From assembly GCA_046758705.1 (NCBI GenBank), contig JBHIAT010000029.1, positions 1 through 27,839 on the forward strand: a stretch of DNA of 27,839 nucleotides, given 5' to 3'. The notes beneath the pieces are model-generated. The model saw only the letters and a list, made by a program, of their open reading frames with translations. It did no database searches and was not told the origin of the DNA. This DNA is from Candidatus Bipolaricaulia bacterium. GTDB lineage: Bacteria > Bipolaricaulota > Bipolaricaulia > JBHIAT01. The translations under genes were made by a program, and so were the position numbers. Below, one piece after another: positions 89-23,367 of the stretch. Every line of letters starts with the position of its first letter. Position 1 is the first letter of the stretch.

Positions 89-2590
89 CTAAGCGCGCAG
101 CTTGGCACCCAGTTCCTGCTCCAGGTGACGTCGGATTCGCTCGTGCACCTGTTGGACTTCATCATCGGTCAGGGTGCGATCTGTTGTTTGATAGGTGAGC
201 GTGTAGGCGAGGCTCACCTTCCCCTCCGGAATCTGCTCACCCCGATAGACGTCGAACAGGACCGCCTGGGTCACCAGTTCGCCGCCGGCCTCCCGGATGA
301 GGTCATAGACCTGACGGGCAGGGATCGTCTCGTCGACGATGACGGCCAGATCCTGGATCACAGCAGGATAGCGGGAGATGGGCTGGTAGGGATGGTCGCG
401 CTCCGTCCGATCGAGGAGCGCATCCAGGTCGAATTCGCCAACACAGATCCGCACTTCAGGCAGATCGAAACGCTCGGCGACCTCGGGATGGAGTTCTCCC
501 AAGATCCCGATTCGCTTCCCATCGATCTCAAGCTCGGCCGATCGGCCGGGATGGAAACCGCGGTGGTTGGTTGTGGTTGAGGCGAACCGATATCGGGTAT
601 CTTGCAACCCGAGCCGATCGAGCAGGGTATCGACCACCCCTTTCAGATCAAAGAAATCCATCTCCCTTGACCCGTCCTCCGACCATGAGCGGCGAGGGGA
701 CCGGGGACCGGACAGAGCGATCCCCAACCGACGCGGTTCCTCGGGCAGCAGCTCGCCGGCGACCGGCAGATAGACACGCCCGATCTCGAAGATCGCCACC
801 CGATCACCAAAGCGGAGGTTCGACTTGACCGTCTCAATCAGACTGACGATGAGCGTCCTGCGCAGATGGGAGCGTTCTTGGGTGAGCGGATTGGCCAATG
901 CGATATGTGCTTCGTTCGCCATCACAGGATCGAAGCGGGCGACACCCTCCGGGTAAGTGAGAGAGTAGCTGATGACCTCCATCAACCCGATCCCGGTCAG
1001 GAGATCCCGAACCCACTCCTCGCCCTCCAATGCCCGATTGCGACGCTGAGGCGGCAAGGTGTCATACATCAGCGTCGTCGGAATCTGGTCATAGCCGATC
1101 ACCCGAGCAACCTCCTCGATCAGATCGGCGGGGATCTCCACGTCGAGACGGTGGTCGGGGACCGTCACTTGGATAACATCACGATCCGGTTCTGATTCGC
1201 ACTGAAACTCCAGCGATTTCAACACCGTGATGATACGCTCCGGGGAAACCTTCATTCCCAGAATGCGCTCCACTTCGCCCGGGTCGAGTTCGATCTGCCT
1301 GAGCGGCTGTTTGACCGGATAGACGTCGATGATGCCGTCGGCGATGGTGCCGCTGGCGAGCTGGCGCATCAACCCGCTCGCCCGAACGAGCGCCGGGATC
1401 GTCAGTTCGGCCGGCATCCCTTTGCCGAATCGGTCCGAGGCCTCGCTCGAGATCTTGAGCCGGTTTGCGGTGCGTCGGTTGCTGATATATTCGAAGTTGG
1501 CCGACTCGAGCAGGACGTTCTCGGTCGCCTCGGTCACCTCGGTTTCCAGACCGCCCATCACTCCGGCGATCGCGATCGGACCGCCGCCGTCGGTGATGAA
1601 CAGGTCTGCCTCGATGAACCGTCGCTCGACGCCGTCCAGCGTCGTCAGCCGCTCATCCGGCTTGGCCCGACGGACGATGATCGTCGGATGTGACTCTCCT
1701 GGTTTGGCTCGAAGGCGATCGTAGTCGAAGGCGTGCAGCGGTTGACCCCACTCGAGCATACAGTAGTTGGTGATGTCGACGATGTTGTTGATCGGGCGCA
1801 TCCCTGCCGCCAGTAAGCGGCGACGCATCCAAAACGGCGAGGGTTGGACCTGAATCCCACGGATCAGGCTAGCGGTGTAACGCGAGCAAAGATCCGGATC
1901 GGCGATCTCGATCGCAGCCTGGCCTGAAATCGAGTCTTCACCGGTGACCCAGTTCGGATCTTCGAGCTTGAGCCGCTCGCCGGTCAACGTGGCCACCTCC
2001 CGGGCCACCCCGATCACTGACAGGCATCGAGCCAAGTTCGGGGTCAAGTCAAATTCCAAGACCACATCACCGGTCACCTGTGACAGCGGTGCCCCGACCG
2101 GTATGTCGTCGTCGAGGATCAGGATACCGGTGTGATCGTCCGACAGGCCCAGTTCCTTCTCGGAGGGGATGACGACCTTGGAGTCCACCCCTCGGATCCG
2201 AGCCGCCGCTACGGTGAAGGTTTGGAAACGGTCGGCGTATGGATCGACGAGCGTCGCCCCGACCTCGGCGACCGGGACCTTGTTTCCCACCTCTCCGATC
2301 CGGACGTTGGGGGCGCCGGTGACACTGACCGCCCGTCGTCCGTCTCCGTAATCGACAGTGGCGACGACGAGCCGGTCGGCGTTGGGATGGGGGTTAACCT
2401 CGACAATCTTTCCCACATAGACCCCATCCCAGGTAAGCTCGGTTGCGTTCTCCTTCCCGGTCTCTGGGTGTCGACCGATGTGTTCGACTGCGGCCACCTC
2501 GATCCCCGCCATCGTCAGTCGATGGGCAAGCTCTGCAACCGGAAGGGTGACATCGACATACTCGGTTAGCCAACTGAGTGGAACGCGCAT
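89..2590 (-). CDS. pheT: Phenylalanine--tRNA ligase beta subunit
   Basis: 833 aa. Motifs MRVPLSWL, HPNADRL, RPINNIVDITNY, GQPLHAFD, DLIEEVAR, and a C-terminal ferredoxin-fold anticodon-binding domain. Lies directly downstream of pheS. Confidence 0.97.
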   Translation of the reverse strand: MRVPLSWLTEYVDVTLPVAELAHRLTMAGIEVAAVEHIGRHPETGKENATELTWDGVYVGKIVEVNPHPNADRLVVATVDYGDGRRAVSVTGAPNVRIGEVGNKVPVAEVGATLVDPYADRFQTFTVAAARIRGVDSKVVIPSEKELGLSDDHTGILILDDDIPVGAPLSQVTGDVVLEFDLTPNLARCLSVIGVAREVATLTGERLKLEDPNWVTGEDSISGQAAIEIADPDLCSRYTASLIRGIQVQPSPFWMRRRLLAAGMRPINNIVDITNYCMLEWGQPLHAFDYDRLRAKPGESHPTIIVRRAKPDERLTTLDGVERRFIEADLFITDGGGPIAIAGVMGGLETEVTEATENVLLESANFEYISNRRTANRLKISSEASDRFGKGMPAELTIPALVRASGLMRQLASGTIADGIIDVYPVKQPLRQIELDPGEVERILGMKVSPERIITVLKSLEFQCESEPDRDVIQVTVPDHRLDVEIPADLIEEVARVIGYDQIPTTLMYDTLPPQRRNRALEGEEWVRDLLTGIGLMEVISYSLTYPEGVARFDPVMANEAHIALANPLTQERSHLRRTLIVSLIETVKSNLRFGDRVAIFEIGRVYLPVAGELLPEEPRRLGIALSGPRSPRRSWSEDGSREMDFFDLKGVVDTLLDRLGLQDTRYRFASTTTNHRGFHPGRSAELEIDGKRIGILGELHPEVAERFDLPEVRICVGEFDLDALLDRTERDHPYQPISRYPAVIQDLAVIVDETIPARQVYDLIREAGGELVTQAVLFDVYRGEQIPEGKVSLAYTLTYQTTDRTLTDDEVQQVHERIRRHLEQELGAKLRA

Positions 2591-2606
2591 GTTAATAGGT
2601 AACCGG

Positions 2607-3653
2607 TTAGAACTGACCTAAGAAGCGCAGGTCATTACCGTAGAACAGCCGGATATCGTTAATGTTATACTTCAACATGGCGATGCGATCGGGTCCCATA
2701 CCAAAGGCGAAACCGCTGTATTCATCGGGGTCGTAACCCCCGTTTTCGAGCACCTTGGGGTGGACCATCCCGGCCCCCAATATCTCGACCCAACCGGCAT
2801 ATTTACAGACACGGCAACCGGTTCCCCCGCAGATAATACAGTCCATATCGACCTCGGCGCTCGGTTCGGTGAACGGGAAGTAGCTGCACCGGAACCGGAC
2901 CTGACGCTTCTCACCGAACATCTGACGGGCGAACTCGATCAACACCCCTTTGAGGTCGGCCATGGTGATATGTTTTCCCACGGCCAGACCTTCTACCTGA
3001 TAGAACATCATCTCGGACCGGGCGGTGACCTGCTCGTAGCGGTAACATTTCCCGGGAAGGATGACCCGAATCGGTTCGGGCGCATGCTGGCGCATGGTCC
3101 GGATCTGTCCGGGCGAGGTGTGGGTGCGCAGCAGTACAGCCGGGTTGGTCGTGTAGAACGAGGCCTGCATCTCCCGGGCCGGATGGTCAGGGGGGAAGTT
3201 CAGCAACTGGAAGTTATATTCGTCCGTCTCCACCTCCGGGGTTTCGACCACTTGGAACCCCAGCTTGGAGAAGATCGCGTAGATCTCCCGCAACGTCTGG
3301 GTGATTAGATGGAGGTGGCCGACCTCCCACGGCCGACCAGAACGGGTCACATCGACCGTCTCCTGGCTGAGCCGGAGATCGCGCTCCCGGTACACCAGGG
3401 CCTCACGCCTGGCATCAAGCTCCTGGTTTACGTCGTGTTTCAACGTGTTGATCAGCCGACCGGCCTCGGCGCGCTCCGCCCCGTTGAACTCCGTCAGCCG
3501 GTCGACCAGCCGGGTGATCTGCCCGTTTTTCCCCAGAAATCGTATTCGTACCGCCTCGGCTGCCTCGAGGCTGTCCAGATCGGCCAGAGCGTCTCGGCTC
3601 GACCGTCGGATCTCCTCAACCTCCGCCTTCAGTCTATCGAGTCTATCCGACAT
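2607..3653 (-). CDS. pheS: Phenylalanine--tRNA ligase alpha subunit
   Basis: Motifs HPAREMQ, LLRTHTSPGQ, FYQVEG, YFPFTEPS, GFAFGMG. Start moved from the ORF-track GTG (3683) to ATG 3653 because a TATAAT box lies between the two. Confidence 0.96.
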   Translation of the reverse strand: MSDRLDRLKAEVEEIRRSSRDALADLDSLEAAEAVRIRFLGKNGQITRLVDRLTEFNGAERAEAGRLINTLKHDVNQELDARREALVYRERDLRLSQETVDVTRSGRPWEVGHLHLITQTLREIYAIFSKLGFQVVETPEVETDEYNFQLLNFPPDHPAREMQASFYTTNPAVLLRTHTSPGQIRTMRQHAPEPIRVILPGKCYRYEQVTARSEMMFYQVEGLAVGKHITMADLKGVLIEFARQMFGEKRQVRFRCSYFPFTEPSAEVDMDCIICGGTGCRVCKYAGWVEILGAGMVHPKVLENGGYDPDEYSGFAFGMGPDRIAMLKYNINDIRLFYGNDLRFLGQF

Positions 3654-3662
3654 GACGTCCCG

Positions 3663-3714
3663 ATTATAGCGGTGGAGAGCCACTTTGACAAATCTCGGTC
3701 GAAAGGGATAGAAT
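3663..3714. promoter_or_regulatory. Divergent sigma70-type promoter pair with overlapping -35 boxes
   Basis: Plus strand: TTGACA (3685-3690), 18 nt, TAGAAT (3709-3714). Minus strand: TTGTCA (3691-3686), 17 nt, TATAAT (3668-3663). Confidence 0.8.
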
Positions 3715-3722
3715 ACTTAAAC

Positions 3723-5015
3723 ATGACTTGGCATAAGATCCCGGGTTTGAAGTGTATGGTGGTCAGCGCACTCCTGTTCGCGGTATTCCTGTTTCAGCAC
3801 GCTGCTGCACAAGGGCCGGATCGACTTACGTTCTCGGTGCGGGTGTCGCTGATCGCCTTTCCTATCGAGACGATGTCGGCGGATCTGGAGGGACTTTCGG
3901 CCCCGTTGTTGCCCCTGATGGAGGACCTGGGGGATCATCTCGCCGCAATGGCTCGTGAATTGGGCTACCTGGAGTTGGTTGACGATCCCCGTCAGGCCGA
4001 TGTCGAGGTGGAGATCGAGGTGGGGGTAGACCGTGGCGGGTCGGAGGCAGAGCTGTTCACCGCGCGGATCGGGCTTCGTTACCTGATGAGTGTGGAGCGC
4101 AACGCCCTGGAGTTGAGCGTCCGCAAGGAGCGGGAGATGTTCGTGGCTGAGGTCGAGAATCGGTTGTTCTCCCATCTGACGTTGATCGCCCTGAATCGGG
4201 GGGTGAACGCACCGCTTTACCAACTCACCTTCGTGGACGCCTGGGATGAGCAGCCGACCTTCTCCCCTGATGGCCAGCGGTTGATGATCATTTCCGAACG
4301 GTTTGATGCCAATCGCAACCTGCTCACCTTCGATATCGCCCAACTGTCACAGACGAGCCATACCTTCCCCGGGACGGAGTTCTTCCCTGTCTACTCCCCG
4401 GATGGGGGGGAGGTGGCGTTCCAAGCCTCCAAGGACGGGAGCTGGGATATCTGGGTGAGGGACGTGAGCACCGGGGAGACGACGCGGTTGACCGGTTACG
4501 GTGCCGATGAGATTCAGCCAACCTGGTCGCCGGATGGGCAGCGGATCGCGTTCGCCTCCAACCGGAGCGGCGTCTGGGACATCTGGGCGATGGACAGCGA
4601 TGGGGGGAACCCGCGCTGGCTCACCCATTCCCCAGCGCGTGACCTCTCTCCCAGCTGGTCGAACCGGAATCAGATCGCCTATGTCTCAGACCGATCGGGG
4701 AACTTCGATATCTGGATACTCGATCTCGGTGGGGGGGATCAAGTCAACATCACCGATACCTTCGAGATCTCGGAGTTCGATCCCAGTTGGTCCCCTGACG
4801 GCCGGTGGCTGGCGATCTCAGCGAACCGCGCCAGCCCGAGCAACTTCGATATCTGGGTCATCGATCCGATCGGCAACTACCTGGAGCGGGTGACGGAAGA
4901 TCCGGCGGAGGATTACCATCCTGCCTGGTCACCCGACGGGCGGATGATCGTGTTCCAATCGTTCCGTCACAGGAACGCCGACATCTTTATCAAGCGGTTG
5001 GGCGATGGCATGTAA
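3723..5015 (+). CDS. Secreted TolB-like beta-propeller protein (PD40 repeats)
   Basis: From ATG 3723 there is a signal-peptide-like N-terminus (..VVSALLFAVFLFQHAAA|QG) and repeated PxWSPDGxxIAFxSxRxGxxDIW units. The ORF-track start at 3309 overlaps pheS on the opposite strand and is unlikely. Confidence 0.85.
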   Translation: MTWHKIPGLKCMVVSALLFAVFLFQHAAAQGPDRLTFSVRVSLIAFPIETMSADLEGLSAPLLPLMEDLGDHLAAMARELGYLELVDDPRQADVEVEIEVGVDRGGSEAELFTARIGLRYLMSVERNALELSVRKEREMFVAEVENRLFSHLTLIALNRGVNAPLYQLTFVDAWDEQPTFSPDGQRLMIISERFDANRNLLTFDIAQLSQTSHTFPGTEFFPVYSPDGGEVAFQASKDGSWDIWVRDVSTGETTRLTGYGADEIQPTWSPDGQRIAFASNRSGVWDIWAMDSDGGNPRWLTHSPARDLSPSWSNRNQIAYVSDRSGNFDIWILDLGGGDQVNITDTFEISEFDPSWSPDGRWLAISANRASPSNFDIWVIDPIGNYLERVTEDPAEDYHPAWSPDGRMIVFQSFRHRNADIFIKRLGDGM

Positions 5016-12016: not shown

Positions 12017-13330
12017 ATGTTCATTGACGAAGTCAAGATCCACGTCAAGGCCGGGGACGGCGGCGATGGGCTGATCAGCTTCGATCGATTGCCGAGAGGT
12101 CGCGGCACGCGGAGGATAGCGAGCGGCGGGGATGGAGGATCGGGTGGGGACGTGATCTTTGAGGCAACCGGAAGTCTGAACACCCTGCTCAACTTTCGCC
12201 ATCAAATCCATTTCCGTGCGGAAAACGGGGGACCCGGCGGCTCAAAGGGGAAGACCGGCCGGGGTGGGGCGGATCGCAGGGTGATGGTGCCCGTGGGGAC
12301 GGTCGTCACCGATCCGTACACCGGAGAGGTGCTCGCTGAACTGACCGAACCGGGTGTGGCGCGTGTGATCGCCACGGGAGGCCGAGGGGGGCGGGGGAAT
12401 CGCCGATTCAAGAGTTCGAGGTCGAGGCGCCGGGCTCCGCGGATTCGGGAACGGGGGGAGGCCGGGGAGGCGCGCTGGCTCAGGTTGGAATTGAAGTTGC
12501 TCGCGGATGTCGGGATCGTTGGCCAGCCGAACGTCGGCAAGTCGAGCCTCATCGCCCGTATCTCGGCCCAACGGCCGAAGATCGCCGATTACCCGTTCAC
12601 CACCTTAGAGCCACATCTCGGCGTCGTTCGGGTGGGCGAGTTCGATGAGTTCGTGGCCGTCGATATCCCAGGGCTGATCGAAGGTGCCCATGAAGGGAAA
12701 GGGTTGGGAGATCGGTTCTTAAAACACATCGAGCGGACGAGCCTGGTGCTCCATATGATCGACGTCTCGGGGGGAGAAGGTCACGATCCGCTGGACGACT
12801 ACTTCGTGATTAACGAGGAACTCCGGGCCTTCAATCCGACACTGGCTGAGAAGCCACAGATCGTCGTCGGGAACAAGATCGACCTTCTGGAACCGGAGAT
12901 GGTCGAGGCGGCCGTCTCCCGGTTCGCGGCGACAGGGATCGAGCTCCATCCCATCTCGGTGGCGACCGGCGCCGGGATCGATCGGTTGATCCGTGACGCC
13001 TATCAGAGGGTTCGGTCGCTCCGGGCCCGGGCGCGAACGGAGCGGATGGCGGCGAAGCGCAAGGTGTATCGAATCGAGGAGGAGGAGGAGCCGGAGTCTA
13101 TGGCATCCCAGGTTCGCTTCGATGGCGAGGCGTTCGTGGTGGAAGGTGGAGAGGCGGAACGGTTGGGCCGACGGCTGTTTCTCGACACCGAGGATGCCCT
13201 GGCGTATCTCTACGAACGGTTGGAGGCACTGGGTGTGGTCGCTGAGTTACAACGCCTCGGGATCCGTCCCGGGGAGATCGTGTGCATCGGTGACTATGAG
13301 TTCGAGTTCCAGTTCCAGCGTCAGTCTTGA
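12017..13330 (+). CDS. obgE: GTPase Obg/CgtA with C-terminal OCT domain
   Basis: MFIDEV, Gly-rich Obg fold, GQPNVGKSS, ADYPFTT, DIPGLIEGA, NKID. Confidence 0.96.
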   Translation: MFIDEVKIHVKAGDGGDGLISFDRLPRGRGTRRIASGGDGGSGGDVIFEATGSLNTLLNFRHQIHFRAENGGPGGSKGKTGRGGADRRVMVPVGTVVTDPYTGEVLAELTEPGVARVIATGGRGGRGNRRFKSSRSRRRAPRIRERGEAGEARWLRLELKLLADVGIVGQPNVGKSSLIARISAQRPKIADYPFTTLEPHLGVVRVGEFDEFVAVDIPGLIEGAHEGKGLGDRFLKHIERTSLVLHMIDVSGGEGHDPLDDYFVINEELRAFNPTLAEKPQIVVGNKIDLLEPEMVEAAVSRFAATGIELHPISVATGAGIDRLIRDAYQRVRSLRARARTERMAAKRKVYRIEEEEEPESMASQVRFDGEAFVVEGGEAERLGRRLFLDTEDALAYLYERLEALGVVAELQRLGIRPGEIVCIGDYEFEFQFQRQS

Positions 13331-13390: not shown

Positions 13391-13894
13391 ATCGACCGAC
13401 AAGCACGGATCAACGAGCAGATCAGGGTGAGTGAGGTCCGAGTCATCGATGAGAAAGGAAGACAGCTGGGTGTGATGCCGGTGGTCGATGCATTAGAGAA
13501 GGCAAAGCGCCGGGGCCTCGATCTCGTCGAGGTTGCCCCCCAAGCCGACCCAGTGGTCGTCAAGATCCTCGACTACGGGAAGTACAAATACGAGCAGGAA
13601 AAGCGCAGGAAGAGGCAAAGGAAGAAGCAGAGCCGGCTCAAGGAGATGCGGTTCACCACCAAGATCAGCGATCATGACTTCAACACCAAACTGCGTCACA
13701 TCCGTCGATTCCTGGAAGATCAGCACAGGGTGCGGATCACGGTGATCTTCCGGGGACGGGAGATCGTCCATATGGATCGAGGACAGGACCTTCTGAACCG
13801 GATCGTCGAGGAGACCCAGGACATCGCCAAAGTGATTCAGAGTCCACAACGGCGCGGTCGAACCCTCCAGATGCTGCTCGTGTCGGAGAACTAA
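13391..13894 (+). CDS. infC: Translation initiation factor IF-3 with non-canonical ATC start
   Basis: The conserved RINEQIR lies upstream of the ORF-track GTG. SD TAAGGAGGG (13374-13382) is followed 8 nt later by in-frame ATC (13391). In-frame TAA at 13367 with no ATG/GTG/TTG between. LDLVEVAP and DYGKYKYE motifs. Confidence 0.95.
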   Translation: MDRQARINEQIRVSEVRVIDEKGRQLGVMPVVDALEKAKRRGLDLVEVAPQADPVVVKILDYGKYKYEQEKRRKRQRKKQSRLKEMRFTTKISDHDFNTKLRHIRRFLEDQHRVRITVIFRGREIVHMDRGQDLLNRIVEETQDIAKVIQSPQRRGRTLQMLLVSEN

Positions 13895-13941
13895 CAGCTC
13901 TAAGACCCAGTGATCCAGAGAGAGGAGAGAGGGAGATAACG

Positions 13942-14136
13942 ATGCCCAAGGCCAAAACCCATAGGGCAGTGAGCAAACGCTTGAAGACGAACAAACACGG
14001 GAAGATACGCCACAGAAAATCGCACTATCATCACAAGCTGAGGAAGAAACGCTCCCAATACAAACGGCAGGCGAGACGGTTCAAGGCGATCGCTAAGGCG
14101 GACGAGAGGATGCTTAAGCGTATGATCTCCAGTTAG
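13942..14136 (+). CDS. rpmI: 50S ribosomal protein L35
   Basis: MPKAKTHRAVSKR, highly basic, 64 aa, between infC and rplT. Confidence 0.93.
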   Translation: MPKAKTHRAVSKRLKTNKHGKIRHRKSHYHHKLRKKRSQYKRQARRFKAIAKADERMLKRMISS

Positions 14137-14168
14137 AAGCTGGGGGTATATAGAGAGGGTGAGCGGAT

Positions 14169-14519
14169 GTGCCGAGGGTCAAAGGGGGAAAGCGACGCAA
14201 GGAGCGTAGGAAGAAGATCCTGAAGCTGGCAAAGGGGTTCAAAGGCCGTCGAGGAACGGCCCATCGGATTGCTAAACAGTCGGTGATGAAGGCGCTCAGG
14301 AACGCCTACATCGATCGTCGGCGAAGGAAGCGGGAATTCAGACGGATGTGGATCATCCGCATCGGGGCGGCGAGCCGTCAGCGTGGCCTGTCTTACTCCC
14401 GATTCATCGGCGATCTGAAGGCCGAGGGGATCGAGCTCAACCGCAAGATGCTGGCGGAGATCGCCGTGCGGGACGCAAAGACGTTCGACTCGTTGGCCGA
14501 GATCGCTAAAAAGTCTTGA
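14169..14519 (+). CDS. rplT: 50S ribosomal protein L20
   Basis: [45 protein letters not shown]. Confidence 0.97.
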
Positions 14520-14580
14520 GGAACGGAGTCCTAAATCCTACGGGACAAAGGGTGAACGCGCTCGGGCCCCCGAACAGCTG

Positions 14581-15462
14581 GTGAACTTCCAAGAGATCGT
14601 TCTCAAACTCCACGAGTTCTGGATGGACCAGGGGTGTCTGTCGCTGGTCCCCTATGATGTTGAGATCGGCGTCGGGACCTTCCCCCCGGCCACCTTCTTC
14701 GGAGCCTTGGGGGAGCGACCCTGGCGGGTCAGTTACCTGGCGCTCAGTCGGCGGCCGACCGACAGCCGCTATGGGGAGCACCCGACCCGGCTCAGGCTTC
14801 ACCACCAGTGTCAGGTGTTGCTCAAACCGCCGCCCGAGGAGGTTCAGACGCTCTACCTGGAGAGCCTGACCCACCTGGGAATTGACCTGCAACGCCATGA
14901 CTTACGGTTCGTGGGGGACGATTGGGATTCGCCGCCCCTGGACGCCTGGGGGTTGGGTTGGGAGGTTTGGCTGGACGGTATGGAGATCACCCGGTTCACT
15001 TACCTCCAGCAGGTCGGCGGGATCGCCCTCGACCCGATCTCGGTCGCACTCAATTACGGTCTCGAGCGGATCGCGACCTTCGTCCAGAAGGTCGAGAACA
15101 TCTTCGAACTGAACTGGAACGATACCTACCGTTACAAAGATCTGTTCCGGGCTCAGGAGCGAGAGTTCTCCGAGTACAACCTCGACCGGGCCGTCGTCGA
15201 CGATATATTGCGCCTGTTCCAGGTGAGCGAACGGGTGACACAGGCCAACCTGGAATGTGATCTGGTCTATCCGGCATACGACCACGTCCTCAAATGTACC
15301 CATCTGCTTGACATCTTAGCGGCACGGGGGGCGATCAGCATCACCGATCGAGAGAAGTACATCGGCCGGATCCGAAAGTTGGCTCGGGGGTGTGCAAAGC
15401 GGTATCTGGAGGAGCCGGGTGACCCGAAGGTCGCTCTCGATCCAGCCCGCCACCTAAGATGA
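14581..15462 (+). CDS. glyQ: Glycine--tRNA ligase alpha-subunit homolog with substituted active-site residues
   Basis: Colinear with GlyQ (MNFQ, SRRPTD, AWGLGWEVWLDGMEIT, YGLER), but many invariant residues are changed (see findings). Family assignment is secure; activity is not. Confidence 0.88.
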   Translation: MNFQEIVLKLHEFWMDQGCLSLVPYDVEIGVGTFPPATFFGALGERPWRVSYLALSRRPTDSRYGEHPTRLRLHHQCQVLLKPPPEEVQTLYLESLTHLGIDLQRHDLRFVGDDWDSPPLDAWGLGWEVWLDGMEITRFTYLQQVGGIALDPISVALNYGLERIATFVQKVENIFELNWNDTYRYKDLFRAQEREFSEYNLDRAVVDDILRLFQVSERVTQANLECDLVYPAYDHVLKCTHLLDILAARGAISITDREKYIGRIRKLARGCAKRYLEEPGDPKVALDPARHLR

Positions 15463-17348
15463 ACGACCCGGGCCGAGCATTGCTGGTCGAGATCGGGACG
15501 GAGGAGATCCCCTCCGGCCTGCTTGCCGGGATCGCAGCACAGCTCAGGACAGACGCGGAACGGCTGTTGAGGGAAACCGGGATCGGCTGGACGGCGATCG
15601 AGGTCCTTCATACGCCGCGCCGGCTCGTGCTCTCCGCCCAGGACGTCGCAGGTGATCGCATCCAGGAAACCCTGCCCGGGATCGTGGCTGAGCTGGTCCG
15701 GGCGATCCGCACCGAGAAGCGGATGCGCTGGGAAGCATCCGACCTGGAGTTCATCCGGCCGATCCGCTGGCTCGTCTGCCTGTTTGGGGACGAGGTCGTC
15801 CCGGTCGAGCTGGGAAGTCTGCGCGCCGGGCGGGCCACCCGCAACCGACGGTTCTGCGAACCAGAGTGGATCGAGGCTCGCGATCCGACGGATTATTTCG
15901 ATCGGTTGGGAACAGCGGTGATCCTCGACCCCAAGGCGCGTCGGGCAACTATCGAAGCAGCGCTGGAGCAGACTGCCGAGGAGATCGGGGGACGGCCCGT
16001 CCAAGATGAAGCGTTGCTCGAGGAACTCGTCGCCAGCTTCGAATATCCGTCCCCCGTCCCGGGGGAGTTTCCCGAGCATTTCTTGAGGCTGCCTCAGGAA
16101 GTGGTGATCGCCACGTTGATCCAGGAAGAGCGGTTCGTTCCGTTCGTCTCCGACCAGGGGATGAAGCCTTACTTTCTCGGATTCCGGGACGGGGAGGTCG
16201 ATGATGGGACGGTGAAGCGGGGTTATGAACAGGCCCTCCGGGCCCAGCTGGCCGACTCCCAATTCTCCTTCGCGAAGGACCGCGAGACGACCCTGGCGGA
16301 GAAGACAGAGGAACTGAAGGCGGTGATCTATCAGGAGCGGTTGGGCTCCATCTGGGACAAGGTGGGGCGGATCCGAAGGTACGCCCATGAGATCGCCCAT
16401 CGGCTTGATTTCCCAACGATGGAGGTCGATCGGGCCGCGTTCCTGTGCAAGGCCGACCTGATGACCGAGATCGTCAAGAAGTTCCCCGGGCTGAAAGGGA
16501 TGATGGGAAGCGTCTATGCCTCGCTGGATGGGGAATCGGAACGGGTCGCCAACGGGATACGGGAGCATTATCTGCCCCGGGCCGCCGGCGATCCGATCCC
16601 CCAAACCGAGATCGGGATCGCTCTCAGCCTCGCTGACAAGCTCGATACGATCGTCGGTTCGATCGTTCTCGTCGATTCCCTCAGTGGATCACGCGATCCC
16701 TTCGACCTGAACCACAAGGCGGACGGAGTTATCCGCATCGCGATCGAACGGAACCTCGACCTCGATTTCTACCGTTTGATTCGAGATCTCGAAGAACAGT
16801 TCGCCCGGTTGAGGGAAGGGCATGAGTCAGGGATCGAGATCGAGGTGATTGAGGCGTTCTTCCAGGATCGGGTCTATCAGGTCCTGGTTCAGGAGTACCG
16901 GGTCGACGACGACCTAGGAAAGGCGCTGACGGCCGCGCCGACGGGGAATTTCTTGCGGACGTTCCGGAAGGCGAAAGCACTGGAACGGTCGAAGGATCAG
17001 GAGGCGTTCAAAGCACTGGTCGCCGCCTGCTCACGGATGCGTCATGTCACCGAAGATCATGAGATCGAGGGGTATGATTCAGCGCTGTTCGAAGAGGAGG
17101 CCGAGCTGGAGCTGTGGCGTCGCTTCTTAGAGGTGAAGCGGGAGATCATCAACCTGGAGAGCAATAGGGATTACAATGCGATCCTTCAAGCCCTGACCAG
17201 GCTCAAAGAGCCGATCGATCGCTACTTCAATGCGGTGCGGGTGATGACCGATGACCGGGTGCTCCGGGAGAATCGTTTGGGGTTCCTGCTCGAGGTCGAG
17301 GCGTTGTTCTTCACGATCGGTGACCTGTCAAAGATTGTCGTCGAATGA
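15459..17348 (+). CDS. glyS: Glycine--tRNA ligase beta-subunit homolog, internally shortened
   Basis: LLVEIGTEEIP, TPRRL, MRW, FIRPIRWL, CKADL, EHYLPR, ADKLD, and an ENRL-containing anticodon-binding domain. 629 aa. ATGA overlap with glyQ. Confidence 0.88.
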   Translation: MNDPGRALLVEIGTEEIPSGLLAGIAAQLRTDAERLLRETGIGWTAIEVLHTPRRLVLSAQDVAGDRIQETLPGIVAELVRAIRTEKRMRWEASDLEFIRPIRWLVCLFGDEVVPVELGSLRAGRATRNRRFCEPEWIEARDPTDYFDRLGTAVILDPKARRATIEAALEQTAEEIGGRPVQDEALLEELVASFEYPSPVPGEFPEHFLRLPQEVVIATLIQEERFVPFVSDQGMKPYFLGFRDGEVDDGTVKRGYEQALRAQLADSQFSFAKDRETTLAEKTEELKAVIYQERLGSIWDKVGRIRRYAHEIAHRLDFPTMEVDRAAFLCKADLMTEIVKKFPGLKGMMGSVYASLDGESERVANGIREHYLPRAAGDPIPQTEIGIALSLADKLDTIVGSIVLVDSLSGSRDPFDLNHKADGVIRIAIERNLDLDFYRLIRDLEEQFARLREGHESGIEIEVIEAFFQDRVYQVLVQEYRVDDDLGKALTAAPTGNFLRTFRKAKALERSKDQEAFKALVAACSRMRHVTEDHEIEGYDSALFEEEAELELWRRFLEVKREIINLESNRDYNAILQALTRLKEPIDRYFNAVRVMTDDRVLRENRLGFLLEVEALFFTIGDLSKIVVE

Positions 17349-17360
17349 CGTGTGCCCCGG

Positions 17361-17969
17361 TTAGCGAGAGCGCGATGGGTACATCCCTATGAGTTTCTCT
17401 AACCTCTCGATGTTGCTCAATTTTCCTGTGTCTCTTAATTTTCTAGCTGATTCGGTGAAAAAAATATGGTTTTTTAAGAATTCTAGCTGAATTTTGTACC
17501 ATTCATCACCTTCATATCTTATCCCTCTCGATATTTCCCATTCTTTTCTCAATAAATCGCCTTTTTCAAGGAAATCATCCCGACCCAGATGATCCAAATC
17601 CGCATCACATAGGATTCGTTGTAAGTGGGTCTGGGGGTTTTGCGGCATTTGAGTCGCCAGTATGATCCTCGTAATGGCCTCGATGTCCTGTTGCGAGTAT
17701 CCGTTATATTGTGACAATGTCACGCTAGCAATTTTTGCGCCAATGGGTTCATTATCCTCATACTGTCTTATATATCCGATATCGTGAAACAACGCCGCCG
17801 TCAGCAGAAGCATCGTTTCATGGGATGGGATCTTTTCCAGTTGGGCGTACTGTTTAGCGCTGGTATAGACATCAATCGTATGCTGCTTATCGTGATAATG
17901 TAGGTCTTCAGGCAGTCTTTTGTCCAACCAGTCTATGACACAGTTCTTTAAAACTTCTATATCTGGCAT
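17361..17969 (-). CDS. HD-domain metal-dependent phosphohydrolase (copy 2)
   Basis: YHDKQHT, AALFHDIGY, ILCDADL motifs. AT-rich. Paralog of 18074-18673. Confidence 0.9.
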   Translation of the reverse strand: MPDIEVLKNCVIDWLDKRLPEDLHYHDKQHTIDVYTSAKQYAQLEKIPSHETMLLLTAALFHDIGYIRQYEDNEPIGAKIASVTLSQYNGYSQQDIEAITRIILATQMPQNPQTHLQRILCDADLDHLGRDDFLEKGDLLRKEWEISRGIRYEGDEWYKIQLEFLKNHIFFTESARKLRDTGKLSNIERLEKLIGMYPSRSR

Positions 17970-18577
17970 GCCCGTTCTATTATACCCTGAAATAGGCAGA
18001 AGATGCTCACAAATGTATCAACAGGTCGACAGGACGGTGGTTGGGATTGTGGGTGTGGGTAAGGAGGCGTTCATCACATCCTGATCAGTTGCTCCAATTT
18101 CTTGATGTTGATTGACTTGCCTTCATCCCTTAATTTTCTCGCTGAATTTGTGAAATACTGATGTTCTTCCAAGAACTTTAGCTGTAACTTGTTCCATTCC
18201 TCATCACTATATTCTATTCCCTTACATATTTTGTGTTCTTTTCTCAATAGAGCGCCTTTTTCAAAAAAATCATCGTGACCCAAATAATCCAAATCCGCAT
18301 CACATAGGATTCGTTGCAAGTGGATCTGGGGGTTCTGTGGCATCTGAGTCGCCAGTATCATCCCCGCAATGGTGTCGACGTCCTGCTGTGAATATCCATC
18401 GTACTGTGACAATGTCTCTCTGGCAATTTCTGCGCCAATGGGTTCATTGTTGTCATACTGTTTTACAAATCCGGTATCGTGAAACAATGCTGCGGCCAGC
18501 AGAAGCATCGTTTCATGGGATGGGATCTTTTCCAGTTGGGCGTACTGTTTAGCGCTGGTATAGACATCAATCGTATG
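17802..18577. repeat. Direct repeat between the HD paralogs: 81-nt identical block (17802-17882 = 18497-18577)
   Basis: Base-by-base comparison at offset 695. A second 30-nt identical block lies at 17592-17621 = 18287-18316. Confidence 0.9.
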
Positions 18578-18673
18578 TTGCTTATCGTGATAGTACAGGT
18601 TTTTAGGCAGTTCGTTGTCTAAAAACTCTATGACGTAGTTCTTTATGGCTTCTATATCTCCATTGGTGTTCAT
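18074..18673 (-). CDS. HD-domain metal-dependent phosphohydrolase (copy 1)
   Basis: YHDKQHT, AALFHDTGF, ILCDADL motifs. ATGA overlap with the cyclase stop codon. Confidence 0.9.
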   Translation of the reverse strand: MNTNGDIEAIKNYVIEFLDNELPKNLYYHDKQHTIDVYTSAKQYAQLEKIPSHETMLLLAAALFHDTGFVKQYDNNEPIGAEIARETLSQYDGYSQQDVDTIAGMILATQMPQNPQIHLQRILCDADLDYLGHDDFFEKGALLRKEHKICKGIEYSDEEWNKLQLKFLEEHQYFTNSARKLRDEGKSINIKKLEQLIRM

Positions 18674-20640
18674 TCTTCCGCTTCCGCTTGAATGGGAACC
18701 TCTTCTCCGGGGGCTTCGGCTTCAACCTCTGCCGTTGCCTCCTTAAGGCTGACGACCTGATAGACGGTCGTCTCCCCCTTCCCCTTGATCGAAACGTTCG
18801 AATGTCGTACGACTTCGACGATATCTTTGACCTGTTCGTAGGTCGATTCGCTGATCAAGATCTCAGAGTTGAGATCCTTGTTCAGTCCTTCAAGCCGGGA
18901 GGCGAGGTTCATGGTATCGCCGATGGCGGTATAATCCATCCGATCTTCGGAACCGACGTTCCCGATCACCGCCGGTCCGGTGGCGAGGCCGACCCCAATC
19001 CTCAACTCGGCCCTTCCCTGTTCGCCCCATCGGTTGCGCAGTTCGATGAGCCGTTGTTGCATCTCGAGGGCGGACCGGACCGCCCGCCCCGGGTCGTCTT
19101 CGTGGGCGATCGGTGCGCCGAAGAACGCGACGATCGCATCGCCCTCGTACTTGTCGACCGTCCCCCCATATTCGTGGATGATCTGGGTCATCTCGGGGAG
19201 GTATTCGTTGAGGATCCCCACCACCTCTTCAGGTGAGATGTTATCGGACATGGCGGTGAACCCCCGGATATCTGAGAAGAACGCGGTGATTTCCTTGCGC
19301 TCGCCGCCGAGCTTCACCTGATCGGGGTTCTGCATGATCTCGTCGACCACGTGAGGCGGCACGTACTTCTGGAAGAACTGCTGGGTGATCCGTTTCTCCC
19401 GCTCCTCGAAGAAGTAGCCGTACAGGACTCCTGCGCCGGAGATGATCACGATCGAGACCGCCGGGTAGAACAGGTGGACCACGGTGTTGAACATTTGGAA
19501 CGCGAGTTGGGCATAGACGAGGTAGACGACGAGCACACCACCGGCGACGAGCGCCCCGGTCGTGGAACTGAACCGGAAGAGCGAGTAACTGAGCACGCCG
19601 CCGAGGATCAACAGGGTGAGATACGTCACCCAGTTGATTGGTGGACTGAGGAGCCGTTCGTTGAGGATATTGCTGATAATCGTTCCATGGACCTCGACAC
19701 CCGGCACGGTCTCGAACGGGGTCGGTCTCAGATCGGACAGTCCCTTGGCAGTGTACCCGATGAGCGCGATCTTGCCCTGAAACTCCTGAGACTCGACGTT
19801 CCCCTCTAGGACGTCGACATACGAAACGTACGGCAACATGTGTCTCCCACCGAAATAGTTGATGAGCATTCTGCTCTTGGTATCCGTGGAGATCTCGGTG
19901 ATCCCTCTGATCTCGATCCGATCTCGATCGATGATGGCATCCTCCTGACGTTTGTCCAGGTAGGCGAGGACCAGTTGCAGGGTGAAGGGGGGATAGAGCC
20001 GGTCGGAGAACCGTTCTCGAAAGACGAGCGGGATCCAGCGGTAGATCTTATCAGGATCCGGAGTGCCGATATCGACAATACCGATCCCCGCCGCATATTG
20101 CGACAGGACCGGCACGGGTGGGAGGATCTTGTCGTAGGCTTCTGCCTTCTTCGAGCGGCTATCCATCCCCGCTTTGAACCGCCGATAGGCGAACTGTTGA
20201 TAGATGAGGTTCGTCTCGGCCTGCGAACGGTTGATGAAATGTTCCCCAAGATAGACGTTGCCGGCGTTTCTAATGGCTTCGGCAAACCGCTCATCATCAT
20301 CAACGGCAAAGCGGCTGACCTCGGGGAACAGGATATCGAAACCGATCGCCTTGACCCCGTACTCGGACAGCTTGTTCACCAACTGCCCGTGGACCGATCG
20401 GGGCCAGGGCCATTGTCCGAGCTCTGCGATGCTCTTCTCATCGATCTCGATGATGACGACCTCATCGCCGGGGTCTTCCTGCCCCCGGATGGCGAACCTG
20501 ACATCGAGCGTCTTTAAGTCGAAGTTCCGCAGCCACTCGTTTACCGACCGCATCCCGCTCGTCGCAAACAAGTTCTGCAGGAAGAAGAAGACGACCAGGA
20601 ACAGGGTGACCCCCACCCCGATTTTCAACGAAGTGCTCAT
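18670..20640 (-). CDS. CHASE2-domain class III adenylate cyclase
   Basis: N-terminal TM; CHASE2 (IDEKSI..GQWPWPRSVH, IGFDILF, PGVEVHG); three TMs; catalytic FSDIRGFT, DKYEGD, DYTAIGDTMNLASRLE. Start is ATG 20640 or GTG 20643. Confidence 0.93.
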   Translation of the reverse strand: MSTSLKIGVGVTLFLVVFFFLQNLFATSGMRSVNEWLRNFDLKTLDVRFAIRGQEDPGDEVVIIEIDEKSIAELGQWPWPRSVHGQLVNKLSEYGVKAIGFDILFPEVSRFAVDDDERFAEAIRNAGNVYLGEHFINRSQAETNLIYQQFAYRRFKAGMDSRSKKAEAYDKILPPVPVLSQYAAGIGIVDIGTPDPDKIYRWIPLVFRERFSDRLYPPFTLQLVLAYLDKRQEDAIIDRDRIEIRGITEISTDTKSRMLINYFGGRHMLPYVSYVDVLEGNVESQEFQGKIALIGYTAKGLSDLRPTPFETVPGVEVHGTIISNILNERLLSPPINWVTYLTLLILGGVLSYSLFRFSSTTGALVAGGVLVVYLVYAQLAFQMFNTVVHLFYPAVSIVIISGAGVLYGYFFEEREKRITQQFFQKYVPPHVVDEIMQNPDQVKLGGERKEITAFFSDIRGFTAMSDNISPEEVVGILNEYLPEMTQIIHEYGGTVDKYEGDAIVAFFGAPIAHEDDPGRAVRSALEMQQRLIELRNRWGEQGRAELRIGVGLATGPAVIGNVGSEDRMDYTAIGDTMNLASRLEGLNKDLNSEILISESTYEQVKDIVEVVRHSNVSIKGKGETTVYQVVSLKEATAEVEAEAPGEEVPIQAEAEE

Positions 20641-20722
20641 CACCGTGAAGTGGTCCGGTTCCGGTCTACATCGAGGACCCAGACCACCTGGTTTTGCACC
20701 CCCTTCTCGCTCTTAATCTCAA

Positions 20723-22161: not shown

Positions 22162-22523
22162 TGGTGGAGGTGGCGGGAATCGAACCCGCGTCCGAAAATG
22201 CATTCGTTCGGTATCTACAGGCTTAGTCCTGTGTTCTGGTTTTAGGGTCGTAGGCTCCCACAGGGCCGGATTCCACAACCCGATCCCTCCTGGGTTATTC
22301 TTCCTCTCCCGAAGGGCAAAGATAAGGATATAGCCCGCATGTGTCGACGCCCCATCCAACCCCTACAGGCGAGAGTCAGCGGGACGGGCGGTTGTTAGGC
22401 AACCGCGACAGGTGCCGCGTAATTGTTGGCACTTAATTGTTGATGTTCCACCCGTTTAAGGAGTATGGTGGGAACTCCGCCTGCAACCTCCCTGCAGCAT
22501 TCCCGTCGAACCCAATCACCCCC
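22162..22523 (-). ncRNA. ssrA: tmRNA; tag reading frame at 22430-22395 encodes ANNYAAPVAVA*
   Basis: 5' GGGGGTGA..TTCGAC; 3' GACGCGGGTTCGATTCCCGCCACCTCCACCA tRNA-Ala-like domain with a G-U acceptor pair; TAAGT followed by a GCC resume codon. Confidence 0.96.
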
Positions 22524-22974: not shown

Positions 22975-23009
22975 CGGTTCAGTGCGACATCAGGATATAA
23001 ATGTAGCGG

Positions 23010-23367
23010 TGAAAGAGGGAAATAAGCCGGATTCTGTCGTGGGAGGCCATCTATCTGGGCGGCCTACCCGAGGGTTGAGCTGCCGGAGAACCGGCGGCCC
23101 ATGGGCGGCCCGGGCCGGACCATCCCCTCCTATTTGGCCTTGCTCCGGTCGGGGGACTGCCAGCCACAGCTCGGTCACCCGAGCTGGCGGTGGGCTCTTA
23201 CCTGCCACCCTTTCACCCTTGCCCACGCGCTGGGGCGTAGGCGGTCTGGTCTCTGTGGCCTGACCCAGCGGTCACCCGCTCTCGGCTTGCGCCGAGCGAC
23301 CTGCCCTATGGAGTCCGGACTTTCCTCAAACACCCGCGGGCGCTTGCGACCTCCTATCCCTCTTTCA
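23010..23367 (-). ncRNA. rnpB: RNase P RNA (bacterial type A)
   Basis: GAGGAAAGTCCGGACTCC near the 5' end and ACAGAATCCGGCTTA near the 3' end. P1 helix TGAAAGAGGGA (23367-23357) pairs with TCCCTCTTTCA (23020-23010). Confidence 0.96.

Follow-up and report, generated by a model that had tools for sequence, protein, structure and literature searches.

The tRNA-elbow domain B2, and exactly that domain, has been removed cleanly and in frame from the β subunit (GlyS) of the glycyl-tRNA synthetase (GlyRS) encoded by a Candidatus Bipolaricaulia bacterium. The genes of the enzyme, glyQ (α subunit) and glyS, lie on contig JBHIAT010000029.1 of assembly GCA_046758705.1 (contig C29 of genome G000 below), which was analysed over its full length of 27,839 nucleotides, positions 1 to 27,839 of the forward strand, and is here called the window; the class refers to Bipolaricaulia throughout. 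In addition to the deletion, both subunits carry substitutions at positions that are otherwise conserved in the sequences compared, and elsewhere in the assembly, contig C136 carries another glyS, which is canonical. On balance, the native GlyRS appears to have been made redundant by an acquired one and to be at an early stage of decay or repurposing; very likely, the enzyme that makes the native pair redundant is the canonical fused Chloroflexota-type GlyQS of C136.

Loss of the B2 domain from GlyS

The features of the native pair are as follows.

14581–15462, + strand: glyQ, GlyRS α subunit, 293 aa, GTG start (PF02091, E-value 1.6e-117; TIGR00388)
15046–15048, + strand: codon of GlyQ Ala156 (E. 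coli Glu162, A. aeolicus Glu-156), coordinate computed from the start of the open reading frame (ORF)
15459–17348, + strand: glyS, GlyRS β subunit, 629 aa, with B1, B3, HD and anticodon-binding domains, without B2 (PF02092, PF05746, TIGR00211)
15648–15653, + strand: B2-deletion junction in glyS, codons A64/G65 (14-sequence, hidden Markov model (HMM) and PDB alignments)
16245–16247, + strand: codon of GlyS Gln263 (aligns with E. coli Arg326)
16710–16715, + strand: codons of GlyS Asn418-His419 (align with E. coli Arg481-Arg482)

As an earlier note made from the sequence alone had described, the glyS frame is open over 629 aa with zero stops, and its ATG overlaps the TGA of glyQ as ATGA at 15459–15462. 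Both proteins are recognized by the family models. GlyS scores 566.1 bits with TIGR00211 (cut-off 300) and has Pfam matches to PF02092 (E-value 4.7e-136) and DALR_1 (E-value 9.1e-09); GlyQ passes by narrow margins, with 379.7 bits for TIGR00388 (cut-off 361.45) and 389.4 for NF006827 (cut-off 369).

The missing segment, put at about 60 aa near the N-terminus by the same note, corresponds to a single structural domain. TIGR00211 matches GlyS as profile positions 2–58 and 118–684, with positions 59–117 absent, and in an alignment of 14 sequences the gap spans 61 columns between A64 and G65. The motif TPRRLVL (residues 52–58) is followed by KRMRW (residues 87–91) after 28 residues. When mapped onto solved GlyRS structures, the deletion has boundaries that match those of E. 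coli B2: residues 4–63 of E. coli GlyS (7yse_C) align with residues 6–65 of the window protein, and other solved β chains resume at query residues 63–64 (chain residue 121 in 8ie2_H and 437 in 7lu4_A). In E. coli, B2 comprises residues 66–124 and is an insertion in B1 believed to extend as far as the elbow of the tRNA (Ju et al. 2021, PMC8464048). Compared with the five-domain order B1-B2-B3-HD-anticodon-binding domain, B2 is absent from the window GlyS and the remaining four domains are present.

An AlphaFold2 model of GlyS has a mean predicted local distance difference test (pLDDT) score of 90.5, with strand 55–64 joined to helix 68–81 by a three-residue turn. The model superposes on solved GlyRS β subunits with template modelling (TM) scores of 0.84–0.91 when normalized by query length (the best nine chains listed by Foldseek). 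GlyS is predicted on this basis to fold like a GlyRS β subunit, in keeping with the folded complex that the earlier note had expected.

An origin of the gap in assembly or binning is scarcely credible. The metagenome-derived assembly is fragmented, with 319 contigs (stated completeness 93.9%, contamination 4.69%), but the Logan per-run contigs of the sequencing runs X1, X2 and X3, which span 13400–17831 or 15249–17831, cross the junction without gaps and with 0–3 differences. Since separate assemblies of three runs bridge the junction, the deletion is no assembly artefact, and the open reading frame and the high confidence of the folded model speak against an artefact as well. Run X4 carries a 95–99% variant of the window, and its contigs do not bridge the junction. 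In the limited collection of literature that was searched, no description of a natural B2-less GlyS or of a degenerate GlyQS was found.

Substitutions in both subunits and the tRNA-Gly genes

GlyS was compared with 238 other sequences (119 Bipolaricaulota-like and 119 fused Chloroflexota-like), and published functional residues were mapped by hand and then by script. The window protein shares no more than 53% identity with its nearest database homologues, nearly all of which are 683–709 aa long; proteins identical or very close to the GlyS of class relatives are named Acetothermia or Bipolaricaulota. The altered motifs listed in the earlier note are all present, and several are private, but GY-E, FVPF and similar variants turned out to be typical of the class in the 14-sequence alignment. 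Private to the window GlyS are R263Q, F270S, G416D, R418N and R419H, three of which fall on functional residues. The position of E. coli Arg326 is occupied by Gln263 and holds Arg or Lys in all 238 other GlyS; Arg326 contacts the ATP γ-phosphate, and its mutation cuts glycine activation ~15-fold (PMC8464048). Of the two B3 contacts to the ATP site, then, Arg326 is Gln and Asp329 is kept. Arg481 and Arg482 have become Asn418 and His419, whereas the other sequences have Arg or Lys at the first position and Arg at the second (238/238 each). Arg481 hydrogen-bonds to the G71 base and Arg482 contacts the U73 phosphate of the acceptor stem (PMC9908026). In the acceptor-stem and discriminator reader (loop H18-19 with Arg481 and Arg482), G473 and D476 are thus kept and both arginines are lost. 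A further change is found at Asn588, which contacts the A37 phosphate and is His here.

The rest of the protein is better preserved. The pocket for anticodon bases C35 and C36 is complete (Arg585, Phe652, Val655, Val657 and Met658), W150, R159 and the HD-cavity residues are kept, and 94 of the 109 class-invariant GlyS columns (86%) are unchanged, compared with 89–100% for canonical rows in a leave-one-out control. Loss of B2 itself is rare. The earlier note had asked whether the deletion might be common among the housekeeping GlyS of the lineage; only two of the 238 other sequences lack B2, P0011 (647 aa) and P0225 (589 aa), both from metagenomes, and both keep R326, R481 and R482. P0015, the sister of P0011, has B2.

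For GlyQ, the canonical set consisted of 116 sequences, 105 fused and 11 from the class. Ala156 replaces the residue equivalent to E. coli Glu162, which is Glu in 116/116 canonical GlyQ (105/105 fused, 11/11 class). The corresponding Glu-156 of A. aeolicus binds the glycine amino group and is the sole glycine-recognition residue common to both GlyRS types (PMC4938167). The five-residue glycine pocket, described as conserved in all (αβ)2 GlyRS (PMC8464048), therefore retains T39, Q82, Q84 and W121 and has Ala in place of E162. Two more changes affect the pocket, A31V, near Trp-115, and T158N, Thr-158 having been proposed to take part in amino-acid discrimination (PMC4938167). At the 37 columns invariant in the 116 canonical GlyQ, the window protein has six private changes; in a control over the same columns, 108 of the 116 canonical rows had zero changes, seven had one and one had twelve. 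Conversely, all six class II ATP/Mg residues (E. coli R64, D67, R76, E134, E141 and R169) are kept, and the residues retained in the window numbering (T33, R58, D61, R70, Q76, Q78, W115, E128, E135 and R163) include the motif-2 and motif-3 arginines and the Mg ligands. A recent or partial release from constraint fits this pattern, because so many other functional residues of GlyQ and GlyS are kept. The view that both subunits had diverged together, put forward in the earlier note, thus holds in so far as each has unusual changes, but the overall decay of GlyS is mild.

The tRNA substrates show no corresponding change. All three tRNA-Gly genes of the genome (anticodons CCC, GCC and UCC) have G1:C72, C2:G71, G3:C70, G4:C69, U73 and an encoded CCA, and since these canonical identity elements are intact, there is no sign of tRNA co-evolution. 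The 47 aragorn calls in the genome comprise the standard tRNAs and three odd calls, which look like false positives. The set covers 41 anticodons, with a second initiator-like tRNA-Met as the single real duplicate (on C109 and C194, with differing sequences).

A second GlyRS and the pattern across the class

The glyQS locus is native and occupies its ancestral slot after rplT. The genes upstream of it are as follows.

12017–13330, + strand: obg, ORF
13427–13894, + strand: infC, ORF
about 13942–14136, + strand: rpmI, ORF
14169–14519, + strand: rplT, ORF

The same slot after infC-rpmI-rplT is found in relatives, with an L20 match directly upstream of glyQ in 10/10 of the loci tested, both canonical and degenerate, and the GlyS tree places the window sequence inside the class. 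C29 is a core-genome contig, as judged from the tmRNA and RNase P RNA genes that lie farther along it. No leader or riboswitch was found near glyQS with Rfam at gathering thresholds, the matches in the window being only the two RNAs just mentioned.

Contig C136 begins inside a second glyS, the product of which (608 aa, 675.6 bits) is canonical at every key residue. Its best homologues are unnamed fused GlyQS proteins of ~1000 aa with 65% identity, and the named ones come from Anaerolineae or Chloroflexota; by homology, the C136 GlyS is identified as the tail of a ~1000-aa fused GlyQS of Chloroflexota type. A dimeric GlyRS was not found in the assembly of G000.

It is likely that C136 belongs to the organism of the window, a judgement that draws in part on our estimate that a few per cent of foreign DNA rarely includes a GlyRS. 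The composition of C136 is within the continuous range of the genome (tetranucleotide correlation to the genome 0.875, the 16th of 80 contigs of comparable length). The contig occurs in the same runs as the window: its word share is 0.92–0.93 in X1–X3 and 0.18 in X4, and the window is well covered in X1–X3 and poorly in X4. The tRNA set, with its single real duplicate, indicates that there is little foreign DNA in the bin, and the sole-copy tRNAs are spread over contigs from one end of the composition range to the other. LysM domains of a single family, 64–76% identical to one another, link C136 to ten other contigs, likewise across the composition range. At its 3' end C136 overlaps the 5' end of contig C24 by an exact 55-mer, which brings together two genes that make a sensible operon.

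C136, 7205–9712 (locus L007): phosphoketolase
C24, 56–1297 (locus L115): acetate kinase

In the end-overlap graph, C136 is linked to C24 only and C29 to C7 and C94 only, with no path between C136 and C29. Class genomes of 3.7–4.1 Mb exist (G092 and G105). FolE, also encoded on C136, was uninformative: its identity is 46–57% to the FolE of some class relatives and 45% to the second copy of the genome, on C245, and two copies occur in G026 as well. The LysM domains sit on different proteins on 11 contigs (C136, C191, C107, C149, C69, C164, C266, C24, C26, C30 and C65), and DUF3179 proteins are multiplied as well, with copies on C24, C25 (four copies), C69, C13 and C7.

Among 183 class relatives, an α-β glyS match is present in 93, a dimeric GlyRS in 90 and both in 11. 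A preprint on GlyRS-type replacement across bacteria (10.1101/2023.05.29.542759) describes a similarly patchy, either-or distribution, and in its sample the two types occur together only once; in contrast, both types are carried by 11 class relatives, and the genome of the window pairs two α-β enzymes, a native split one and a fused one of foreign appearance. The 11 genomes with both types are G134, in which B2 and nearly all key residues are present, and ten with a B2-less GlyS (G006, G026, G133 and G153–G159). B2-less GlyS occurs in 11/183 relatives, so that 10 of the 11 also have a dimeric GlyRS; none was found in the eleventh, G161, which is 74% complete. Absence of B2 was established by alignment in all eleven and presence in twelve (L009–L019 and G134); for ~70 of the 93 matches, several of which are fragments, presence was judged from match pattern and frame length. 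The tree requires at least three losses of B2, in the window lineage, in P0011 and in a subclade of family f3.

Related genomes in the genera g16 and g7 and genome G133 have lost B2 at nearly the same boundaries as the window, which the earlier note had proposed to look for. G133 is close to the state of the window, with no B2, E162G, R481Q and R482S; its GlyS carries ~80 extra residues elsewhere. G133 (L036) and G134 (L037) are two species of the genus g47, both with dimeric GlyRS, and the GlyQS of G134 is near-canonical. In the g16 and g7 pairs, designated GlyQ'S', most catalytic, HD-cavity and anticodon residues are lost.

L020 (G026:C2), 1201–3985; L028–L035; L021: non-catalytic B2-less GlyQ'S' pairs of g16/g7, in the slot after rplT

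Eight g16 genomes have two intact ORFs, and the ninth has glyS' only, its contig ending there. The ratio of nonsynonymous to synonymous substitution (dN/dS) is 0.22–0.37 among the 28 closest g16 pairs listed, and 0.22–0.32 for glyS'; in controls, the canonical pair G002/G014 gave 0.15–0.19 at similar divergence, and two other canonical glyQ pairs with finite dS gave 0.04–0.06. From these values, the most decayed pairs look like a pseudo-synthetase pair under purifying selection.

The window pair resembles those of g16, g7 and G133 (g47) in its slot, in the loss of B2, Glu162 and Arg481/Arg482, and in the presence of a second GlyRS in the genome. It is not a non-catalytic relic of the g16/g7 type: the motif-2 Arg is kept, as are most of the residues of the catalytic site, the HD cavity and the anticodon pocket, and the only losses that it shares with those relics are those of B2, E162 and the Arg pair. 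It is also far less decayed (86% of class-invariant columns kept, compared with 58–73%), it lost B2 independently, and its candidate replacement is a fused α-β enzyme, whereas the second enzyme of the g16/g7 genomes is dimeric. In another relative, glyS (G103:C13:7455-9167) lies inside an open frame of 1168 aa, longer than α and β together.

Several other features of the window were recorded. The tmRNA (175.6 bits, 22162–22523) and the class A RNase P RNA (205.8 bits, 23008–23365) are both on the - strand, within ~1.2 kb of each other. Just downstream of glyS are genes for two tandem paralogous HD-domain proteins of 202 and 199 aa (17361–17969 and 18074–18673, - strand). The gene pair looks like an insertion, because its G+C content (~47%) differs from that of the flanks (~59%). 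Next to it, at 18670–20643 on the - strand, is a gene whose 657-aa product joins a CHASE2 sensor to a class III adenylate/guanylate cyclase domain; its stop overlaps the start of the adjoining HD-domain gene.

Proposed decay or repurposing of the native enzyme

Canonical α-β GlyRS (7YSE, 8IE2) and the window pair share the two-gene, translationally coupled layout, the same α, B1, B3, HD and anticodon-binding fold (TM 0.86–0.91, query-normalized), the class II motif arginines, the Mg ligands, the B1 tRNA loop, the HD cavity and the C35/C36 pocket. The window pair differs in having no B2, in β R326Q, R481N, R482H and N588H, in α E162A, A31V and T158N, and in a GlyQ that is only 18 bits above cut-off. 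Based on these similarities and differences, the coupled pair would still fold, and would probably still form an α2β2 complex and bind ATP. The glycine amino group would be bound poorly (α E156A), the ATP γ-phosphate would be held less well (β R263Q), the tRNA elbow would not be clamped (no B2), and G71 and U73 of the acceptor stem would no longer be read (β R418N and R419H), with the anticodon pocket retained. On the strength of the sequence and of published mutants, the native pair is predicted to charge tRNA-Gly poorly and to leave the housekeeping role to the fused enzyme; the parts lost first would be those needed only for efficient tRNA-Gly charging and for glycine binding. An engineered parallel is EcGlyRS-ΔB2, in which the same domain (E. 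coli 66–124) was removed with B1 intact and which kept glycine activation and adenylate formation but lost most charging and the stable tRNA complex (PMC8464048). That enzyme is a laboratory construct and otherwise wild-type; the deletion in the window is natural and is accompanied by changes in the glycine pocket, the ATP contact and the acceptor reader.

The pair could instead still be the only working GlyRS of the organism, in a lineage that tolerates the B2 loss and the substitutions, perhaps via compensating changes, with C136 as a contaminating Chloroflexota contig. This is unlikely, although a number of observations favour it and weigh against redundancy. The coupled ORFs are intact and in the housekeeping slot, both proteins score above the curated HMM cut-offs, and most catalytic and anticodon-binding residues are kept. 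P0011 and P0225 lack B2 with the Arg pair intact. The E. coli ΔB2 enzyme retained some charging, so that residual function is possible, and the GlyS terminal branch (0.74–0.81) is only slightly longer than those of other lone family representatives (0.60–0.68), which makes the overall acceleration mild. The single glyQ of the assembly is that of the window; C136 starts inside its gene, and the α part of the fused gene is absent from the bin. When the contigs are divided by composition into two clusters, C29 and C136 do not fall together, although the division is weak and the distribution continuous. All runs come from one study, and the contigs give no usable depth comparison. The C136 phosphoketolase is 71–78% identical to mostly Chloroflexota/Dehalococcoidia records, with no Bipolaricaulota among 77 loci, and the acetate kinase of the linked C24 was found in 1/183 class relatives; the two-gene module is probably acquired DNA, as its affinities suggest. 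Because genes of C136 look foreign to the class, contamination of the bin, for which the stated value is 4.69%, is possible. Finally, G134 and the 11 relatives without B2 together make up a single subclade of family f3, so that very few independent events underlie the association between B2 loss and a second GlyRS. Two of these observations were rejected as arbiters of the origin of C136: the two-cluster model of composition is only weakly preferred, and the phosphoketolase and acetate kinase indicate a foreign origin in which gene transfer and contamination are not separable. What argues against a sole, working GlyRS is that Glu162, Arg326, Arg481 and Arg482 are invariant (Arg or Lys at two of the positions) in all other sequences examined (116 GlyQ and 238 GlyS), that the published Arg326 and B2 mutants are strongly impaired (PMC8464048), that the tRNA-Gly genes are unchanged and that a second GlyRS was found in 10 of the 11 B2-less relatives. 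Added to this is the small chance, estimated rather than computed, that foreign DNA amounting to only a few per cent of the bin would include a GlyRS gene.

A new function is also improbable as an explanation. The altered pocket and acceptor surface might serve another small substrate, RNA or acceptor in a neofunctionalized synthetase-like complex, or the pair might be a non-charging tRNA-Gly binding factor. The changes are indeed concentrated in the pocket for the amino acid and in the part that reads the acceptor stem, and they spare the HD cavity, the anticodon pocket and the residues that bind ATP. The intact non-catalytic B2-less pairs of g16, which are under selection, imply that such pairs do serve a non-canonical role in some part of the class. 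The g16 proteins have, however, lost anticodon and catalytic residues that the window protein keeps, so their functions need not match. Neither a candidate substrate nor a partner was found, nor was an odd tRNA among the 47 aragorn calls, and there is no conserved family with the same substitutions, the nearest homologue being 53% identical and N418/H419 and Q263 private; simple relaxation of constraint would be expected to give the same pattern. The earlier note had read the deletion as a sign of selection for changed RNA or acceptor specificity. We keep this as a minority reading, since nothing shows such selection: the tRNA-Gly genes retain G1:C72, C2:G71, G3:C70 and U73, and what has been lost is what the literature connects with glycine binding and with the charging of tRNA-Gly. 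Within the class, moreover, relatives with the same kind of loss are confined to the one f3 subclade, with dimeric GlyRS in 10 of its 11 B2-less genomes, and a canonical GlyS lies elsewhere in the assembly. Considerable doubt attaches to the more specific idea that the B2-less GlyQS is already a repurposed synthetase-like complex, with ATP binding, HD cavity and anticodon recognition kept, the pocket remodelled (A31V, E156A and T158N) and the acceptor reader disabled. Such a complex may activate a substrate other than glycine or act on tRNA-Gly without charging it, and may be a first step toward the non-catalytic GlyQ'S' of the sister lineages. Synthetase-derived proteins that do not charge tRNA, of which HisZ is one, are the model for this idea. 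In human DALRD3, too, a synthetase-like protein or domain serves a purpose other than aminoacylation (PMC7237682); the window pair differs in keeping most catalytic residues.

Under the favoured reading, in which the native GlyRS is redundant, the locus bears on how synthetases are exchanged. Replacement of a synthetase by an unrelated or foreign enzyme is inferred from patchy distributions, and intermediates are rarely seen. Here, one conserved locus offers a graded series, from intact α-β GlyRS alone, through an intact enzyme with a second GlyRS (G134) and a B2-less pair whose glycine and acceptor contacts are gone (the window and G133), to fully non-catalytic pairs under selection (g16 and g7) and loss of the locus. 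As the least decayed B2-less form, the window pair points to what is lost first: the elbow domain, together with the arginines that read the acceptor stem and the ligand of the glycine amino group. The pair is a natural counterpart of the engineered E. coli ΔB2 enzyme. If a new role proves true, it would represent a new kind of synthetase-derived protein; otherwise, it would still be a useful dated snapshot of enzyme replacement.

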